Shown here: piece by piece, positions 13,716 through 14,092 of the stretch
Layout: each line of letters starts with the position of its first letter
How positions within the stretch are numbered: position 1 is the stretch's first letter
IMG/VR virus record: IMGVR_UViG_2737471838_000005
Strand: one strand, 5' to 3'
Length of the DNA stretch: 18,295 bases
Source of the DNA: a virus
Lineage: Duplodnaviria > Heunggongvirae > Uroviricota > Caudoviricetes
Notes under the pieces: model-generated
The model's database searches: none
Told to the model about the DNA's origin: nothing
Seen by the model: only the letters and a program-made list of their open reading frames with translations
Translations under genes and position numbers: made by a program

Positions 13716-13904
13716 ATGAAAACGTTATTACCAAACGTTAATACGTCTGAAGGTTGTTTTGAAATTGGTGTCACTATCAGTAACCCAGTATTTACTGAAG
13801 ATGCCATTAACAAGAGAAAACAAGAACGGGAGCTATTAAATAAAATATGCATTGTTTCAATGCTGGCTCGTTTACGTCTGATGCCAAAAGGATGTGCACA
13901 ATGA
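13716..13904 (+). CDS. Small hypothetical protein, 62 aa
   Basis: MKTLLPNVNTSEGCFEIGVTISNPVFTEDAINKRKQERELLNKICIVSMLARLRLMPKGCAQ. GAGGA 7 nt upstream of ATG. Stop overlaps the next start (ATGA). Confidence 0.5.
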   Translation: MKTLLPNVNTSEGCFEIGVTISNPVFTEDAINKRKQERELLNKICIVSMLARLRLMPKGCAQ

Positions 13905-14092
13905 ATTCAGCATTTGTGCTTGTTCTGACAGTTTTTCTTGTTTCCGGAGAGCCAGTTGATATTGCAGTCAGTGTGCACAGGACAATGCAGGAGTGTATGA
14001 CTGCAGCAACCGAACAGAAAATTCCCGGTAACTGTTACCCGGTCGATAAAGTTATTCACCAGGATAATATCGAAATCCCGGCAGGTCTTTAA
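13901..14092 (+). CDS. Small predicted exported or membrane protein, 63 aa
   Basis: MNSAFVLVLTVFLVSGEPVDIAVSVHRTMQECMTAATEQKIPGNCYPVDKVIHQDNIEIPAGL. N-terminal hydrophobic signal-like segment and two Cys residues. AGGA upstream. Translationally coupled to the preceding ORF. Confidence 0.5.
   Translation: MNSAFVLVLTVFLVSGEPVDIAVSVHRTMQECMTAATEQKIPGNCYPVDKVIHQDNIEIPAGL

Follow-up and report, generated by a model that had tools for sequence, protein, structure and literature searches.

The two small overlapping open reading frames described here are, with high confidence, dicB and ydfD of the lambdoid cryptic prophage Qin, a pair with a published mechanism that in this copy has lost its control region by deletion and is probably largely silent. 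The window, i.e., the whole stretch of 18,295 nt that was analyzed, matches the Qin prophage of E. coli ZYB62 with 100% identity throughout (BLAST), and both in this strain and in K-12 MG1655 dicB corresponds to RefSeq WP_000854559.1 and ydfD to WP_001083297.1 (“lysis protein YdfD”). Since the accessions are the same and the window does not differ from ZYB62, the encoded peptides are, by sequence identity, the K-12 proteins themselves and not mere relatives. The first frame matches the Pfam profile PF05358 (DicB) with residues 1–62 on profile positions 1–62 (E = 1.9e-40; 136.8 bits, cut-off 27) and the NCBIfam profile NF049927 (“cell division inhibition protein DicB”; 132.8 bits, cut-off 100). 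The second matches PF07358 (DUF1482, which includes YebW) over its full length (E = 3.9e-26; 91.1 bits, cut-off 25) and is assigned to PHROG 1092; 226 homologues of YdfD were found. The original prediction had proposed two genes without recognizing either family, and these matches supply both names, which belong to genes and families that are already known. Sequence searches of the PDB yielded no match for DicB and, with a YdfD profile, only chance matches (E of approximately 0.8–1).

The window holds 78 open reading frames of at least 60 amino acids, so that length by itself is no proof of a gene and the status of both frames must rest on homology and conservation. For the latter we sampled 297 loci from IMG/VR in four scans, with YdfD and three diverged variants as queries; the first scan returned only copies that were 97–100% identical, which are unfit for an analysis of dN/dS, and the three further scans used YdfD variants that are 70–73% identical. 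In the coding frame, internal stops are absent from all 74 distinct dicB and all 88 distinct ydfD DNA sequences, and the other two sense frames are interrupted by stops in every case. By the Nei-Gojobori method, applied to all sequence pairs with dS > 0.05, median dN/dS values were 0.36 (dicB) and 0.22 (ydfD); 99.8% of the dicB pairs and 100% of the ydfD pairs had a ratio smaller than 1. Judged from these substitution patterns, both frames are under purifying selection. Loss of the frames in homologous prophages had been named beforehand as the observation that would speak against real genes; instead, both are conserved, and together with profile matches above curated cut-offs, open frames, and dN/dS below 1 this identifies both as real genes. 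A megablast search with a 1,101-nt query (window positions 13100–14200) matched part of the query in 4,560 of 5,426 complete E. coli genomes, the matches listed carrying an annotated dicB and “lysis protein YdfD” and lying on the dicB-ydfD half of the query. On the opposite strand, an 86-aa open reading frame (13592–13852) overlaps the dicB leader and the 5′ half of dicB; in the best reverse frame over dicB, just 58% of the distinct dicB variants are free of stops. Likewise, an antisense frame occurs at 13907–14122, and the best reverse frame over ydfD is open in fewer than 5% of the ydfD variants.

The ATGA overlap of the 62-aa and 63-aa frames, a separate ribosome-binding site for each, and the hydrophobic start of the second protein (MNSAFVLVLTVFLVSGEP) are all present as originally described (Table 1). 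A mechanical list of open reading frames starts the second one at an upstream ATG (13847), giving 81 residues, but this longer form was rejected, as the Pfam profile begins at its residue 22 and RefSeq annotates the 63-aa form starting at 13901. A dicB homologue lies immediately 5′ of the ydfD homologue in all 297 IMG/VR loci; the 4-nt ATGA overlap occurs in 243 of them, and in 53 others a 2-nt spacer separates ydfD from a DicB variant of 60 aa. From this conserved arrangement we consider the two genes to be probably coupled in translation, as proposed. Such coupling would mean that the lysis protein YdfD is produced only alongside DicB, its restrainer.

Table 1. Positions of the dicB-ydfD pair and of neighboring features in the window.
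Feature	Position	Strand	Basis
flxA, nearest upstream same-strand gene	12774..13106	+	Pfam PF14282, RefSeq flxA
Terminator-like hairpin after flxA, GTGGCCC-TCATC-GGGCCAC then TTTT	13121..13143	+	Sequence, fold
ydfW remnant, N-terminus missing	13543..13632	-	RefSeq pseudogene, L001 14444-14533 (L001 minus 901 = window)
Junction of the 2,260-bp deletion relative to K-12 Qin, 2-nt AT microhomology	13633..13634	.	BLAST
Conserved 52-nt leader cassette, two hairpins, 3′ part of STnc100-like 5′ UTR	13635..13686	+	Rfam sub-threshold, fold, cross-phage comparison
Shine-Dalgarno GAGGA of dicB	13704..13708	+	Sequence; 7 nt 5′ of ATG
dicB, 62-aa cell-division inhibitor DicB (ATG 13716, TGA 13902-13904)	13716..13904	+	Read from sequence; PF05358, NF049927, WP_000854559.1, dN/dS
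Shine-Dalgarno AAGGA of ydfD, within dicB coding sequence	13888..13892	+	Sequence; 8 nt 5′ of ATG
ATGA start/stop overlap of the two frames	13901..13904	+	Sequence
ydfD, 63-aa lysis protein YdfD (DUF1482/YebW family; ATG 13901, TAA 14090-14092)	13901..14092	+	Read from sequence; PF07358, WP_001083297.1, dN/dS, PHROG 1092
Weak terminator-like hairpin in the ydfD/exonuclease gap	14130..14143	+	Terminator scan
Intact 823-aa exonuclease, full-length counterpart of K-12 ydfE	14185..16656	+	PF16473, RefSeq WP_000048327.1

The pair had been thought to head the exonuclease operon, a position that does not hold for the native locus. In K-12 the dicBF operon runs from the promoter dicBp, upstream of ydfA, through ydfABC, dicF, and dicB to ydfD, and is repressed by DicA and derepressed by Rem; a ydfABC-dicFB-ydfD transcript of 1,608 nt was detected and none that reaches ydfE (PMC10448788). 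Natively, dicB and ydfD are thus distal genes of a DicA-repressed operon, and they look like the head of an exonuclease-xis-int unit here because the 2,260 bp with the true operon head have been deleted. BLAST aligns window positions 10895–13634 with positions 1–2740 of the K-12 locus and 13633–14951 with 5001–6319. The deleted segment (K-12 locus positions 2741–5000) comprises the 5′ end of ydfW, ydfX, dicC, dicA, ydfA, ydfB, ydfC, and DicF, as well as dicBp, and ends 83 nt 5′ of dicB. Compared with the dicBF architecture, the window is without DicF, the DicA gene, and dicBp, and has retained ydfD directly after dicB. The small RNA gene is located by Rfam in K-12 (L002, 4858–4909); no DicF match was obtained in the window by Rfam, either at the gathering threshold or at E ≤ 10, and blastn of the K-12 dicF region against the window gave only chance matches of 10–18 nt. 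Where related loci include enough upstream DNA, DicF is located 140–240 nt 5′ of dicB in 265 out of 290. Among 5,426 complete genomes of E. coli, ZYB62 alone carries the deletion junction, which is spanned by none of the 297 IMG/VR loci. In E. coli MEI7BO1-21 (L083, 3094–4091) an independent, IS-associated loss of dicC-dicA-ydfABC-dicF was observed, with a partial ISEsa1 transposase gene in their place and dicB-ydfD kept.

Outside the deletion, the K-12 Qin prophage is a close counterpart: DicB, YdfD, and their ATGA overlap are identical, DNA identity is 99.9% from 83 nt 5′ of dicB into the exonuclease gene, and the flanks are shared, with rem, hokD, relBE, ydfV, and flxA upstream and rspAB past the integrase. 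Beyond the segment that only K-12 retains, the two differ downstream of the pair, where in K-12 IS2 truncates ydfE and only part of intQ is present, whereas the window contains an intact exonuclease, excisionase (16729–16980), and integrase (17015–18295), a stretch that IS2 interrupts in K-12. The exonuclease carries a C-terminal Rv2179c-like 3′-5′ exonuclease domain (PF16473 at residues 642–813; E = 2.4e-67). In this Qin copy with intact exonuclease, xis, and int genes, the immunity region is gone and the tail and terminase genes are fragments. Rfam matches above the gathering threshold (35–233, 4800–5185, and 7663–8086, all on the minus strand) are ordinary Qin features: an IS009 element inside tfaQ, which is a tail-fiber assembly gene, and one cspA-type thermoregulator leader at each of cspI and cspB.

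The 83 nt retained upstream of dicB include a 52-nt cassette, with two predicted hairpins at 13637–13663 and 13665–13679, that is not confined to Qin. STnc100 has been described as a prophage-associated sRNA family (bioRxiv 10.64898/2026.05.13.724894), and the Rfam model RF02076 (STnc100) matches window positions 13629–13679 with 22.9 bits, which is below the gathering threshold of 47 bits. This likeness is a partial match that covers only model positions of approximately 91–140, and the element here is the 5′ leader of dicB and not a stand-alone sRNA gene. Longer matches, likewise sub-threshold, occur 5′ of dicB in K-12 (34.4 bits in its dicB leader), of kil in Shigella phage 75/02 Stx, and of terB in P7 (32.9–43 bits for the three, all below 47). 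The cassette itself was also found in L002 (4907–5116), L301 (2404–2602), and L302 (2438–2553) and is nearly invariant directly 5′ of kil of 75/02 Stx and terB of P7; in P7 both sides of one pair in the second hairpin are changed. For the 107 usable cassettes from IMG/VR, the next gene encodes a DicB-family, a 73-aa Kil-like, an Ash/Rha-like, or a TerB protein. In different phages the left flank switches abruptly at the cassette edge, and the deletion in the window ends at most 2 nt from its 5′ edge. The point approximately 84 nt 5′ of dicB was observed to be a recurrent junction at which varied left sequences join within a few nucleotides (window 13633/13634; K-12 L002, approximately 4994–5001; L018, 2232; L027, 2232–2244), the left partners being the ydfW remnant in the window, a divergent methylase-like open reading frame in L018 and four other loci, and the 5′ end of ydfA in L027.

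It is conceivable, though we consider it rather unlikely, that the cassette is a portable cis-acting RNA module that regulates toxic early genes with no relation to one another, marks a junction of repeated recombination, and forms the last layer that silences the pair in this copy. The genes under such a module would be dicB, a kilR-like gene (which we take to be kilR of the Rac type), terB of P7, and an ash/rha-like gene. The cassette could act through Rho-dependent termination, processing, or occlusion of the ribosome-binding site, and it would, in place of the promoter-operator, keep the pair silent here without control by DicA or DicF.

The comparison with Shigella phage 75/02 Stx also bears on the position of the pair. 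Its kil gene occupies the same slot as dicB, upstream of an exonuclease VIII gene, and is directly preceded by the same 52-nt cassette. With the leader and the downstream exonuclease VIII gene in common, the assignment of the pair to the kil-type slot of a lambdoid early-left operon is borne out. Proteins of the Kil/KilR type and DicB are both small, toxic, and division-blocking, but the 73-aa Kil-like protein has no Pfam match whereas DicB falls in PF05358, i.e., these are unrelated families. Furthermore, the annotation of 75/02 Stx shows no ydfD-like gene directly after kil, and DicB differs from the Kil type in acting via MinC (PMC6832061).

Functions have been assigned to both proteins in the literature. 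DicB binds MinC, and the complex is brought to the septum via ZipA, where it depolymerizes the FtsZ ring and causes filamentation; by the same MinC-dependent activity DicB inactivates the mannose permease ManYZ, which blocks the entry of DNA of lambda-type phages (PMC6832061). Production of YdfD lyses cells, but only while they divide, and co-production of DicB or SulA protects them (PMC8835842). YdfD was reported to bind IspG, as observed by pull-down, ITC, and in-vivo FRET, and lysis was abolished by overexpression of ispG or by HMBPP; YdfD is reported to inhibit IspG in the MEP isoprenoid pathway and to starve envelope synthesis (PMC8835842). This mechanism comes from one study, without enzyme kinetics, whose account does not extend to the hydrophobic N-terminus or to C32 and C45 (PMC8835842). 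On the basis of protein identity, the DicB of the window would be expected to exert the MinC-dependent block of the FtsZ ring and the inhibition of ManYZ, and its YdfD the division-dependent lysis and the binding of IspG. The expectation that small toxic or phage-excluding proteins occupy this slot agrees well with DicB, which is toxic, inhibits division, and also excludes lambda (PMC6832061), and the second frame, encoding a lysis protein (PMC8835842), fits the toxic part of it. Like E of phiX174, A2 of Qbeta, and LysM of phage M, YdfD is described as a small lysis protein that blocks a step in the supply of envelope precursors without degrading the wall (PMC8835842). However, its reported target is IspG, whereas the single-gene lysis proteins act on MurA, MraY, or MurJ, and, unlike these proteins, to which we found no homology, YdfD comes from a double-stranded DNA prophage that also bears a holin/endolysin cassette.

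The second frame had also been considered to encode a signal peptide, and YdfD could accordingly be a periplasmic protein exported by Sec with a cleavable signal peptide, or a membrane-anchored protein with its N-terminus outside. Its N-terminus has an apolar run at residues 3–16 (maximum 11-residue Kyte-Doolittle mean of 3.17), in line with an h-region of approximately 7–15 hydrophobic residues, with V-S-G|E as a possible AXA-type cleavage site and an acidic remainder with a net charge of −4; C32, which is invariant, and C45, conserved in at least 90% of the sequences, could form a periplasmic disulfide. However, a positively charged n-region is lacking, the first Lys or Arg being R27; among 22 relatives a basic residue before position 27 occurs in P0024 alone, as an Arg inside the apolar run. 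In many relatives the putative site reads N-T-G|E (LNTGEP), which places an Asn at position −3. The reported partner, IspG, is cytoplasmic, and its binding by YdfD was observed with three methods (see above); moreover, YdfD without one or two terminal residues kills more weakly and the C-terminal part alone retains some activity (PMC8835842). AlphaFold2 predicts a small alpha/beta fold in which the hydrophobic N-terminus is a strand and not a helix: residues 4–12 form a beta-strand paired with 18–26, followed by a helix at 29–38 and short strands (pLDDT 86, pTM 0.64). With a shallow alignment of 23 sequences, none below 70% identity, and five models that span 54 to 86, this predicted fold is a hint only. 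Foldseek found nothing in the PDB at E ≤ 0.001 for this model (best 1.3). Taken together, we consider export of YdfD quite improbable and the signal peptide of the original prediction unsupported. That YdfD would instead lyse cells directly, as a holin-like membrane-disrupting peptide without inhibition of an enzyme, is very unlikely: it is small, its N-terminus is very hydrophobic, and the published account describes fast lysis upon induction, but the dependence on active division, the block by DicB or SulA, and the loss of lysis with ispG overexpression or HMBPP (PMC8835842) all disagree with such a peptide, its 14-residue apolar run is short for a transmembrane helix, and the window already holds the Qin holin/endolysin cassette elsewhere (essD, ydfR, rrrQ, rzpQ).

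How the pair is expressed in this copy is constrained by the sequence between flxA and the exonuclease gene. A promoter scan found no sigma-70-like promoter on the plus strand between 12500 and 14300. The hairpin that follows flxA has a GC stem of 7 bp and a predicted folding energy of −17.9 kcal/mol (z = −2.6); the terminator scan required five T, so that this hairpin, with four, is unlisted there. Downstream, the weak hairpin in the gap between ydfD and the exonuclease gene fits the published ending of the K-12 transcript after ydfD (PMC10448788). The pair is probably without its normal expression control, and dicB and ydfD are most likely intact yet largely silent passengers in this prophage. 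If they are transcribed at all, the source would be weak read-through or a minor promoter whose existence is disputed. The flxA hairpin, whose stem is followed by only four U, may let transcription from the flxA promoter pass. RegulonDB, as cited in PMC11430063, places a promoter 5′ of dicB, a disputed entry; the pair could be transcribed from it if the 83 nt kept here include it.

A stronger version of this idea, that the deletion rewired dicB-ydfD to a new promoter, either by read-through from flxA of the flagellar regulon or by a promoter internal to the leader, and that the pair is actively expressed, has little chance of being correct. flxA does lie on the same strand, 610 nt upstream, its hairpin is imperfect as a terminator in the way just described, the terminator scan lists no other plus-strand terminator between 13107 and 13716, the promoter cited from RegulonDB would fit, and both frames are intact and identical to K-12. 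However, besides the absence of a plus-strand sigma-70-like site in the promoter scan, primer extension and Northern blots in K-12 found dicBp as the sole promoter (PMC10448788). Unrepressed DicB is toxic, and a loss of dicA would be best tolerated if expression was lost as well; the identity to K-12 may just reflect a recent deletion. Loss of expression along with the control region, rather than a new promoter, is the reading that we prefer.

As a discovery the pair carries small weight, since dicB and ydfD are characterized K-12 genes that are widespread in E. coli, although the function that had been read from the sequence alone was largely correct. ZYB62, however, is a naturally occurring variant: its toxic pair is intact, and one deletion took away the repressor, the promoter, and the partner sRNA. 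As such it could offer a natural test of dicBp-independent expression of dicB-ydfD, and it draws attention to a conserved leader that is common to several division-inhibitor genes.
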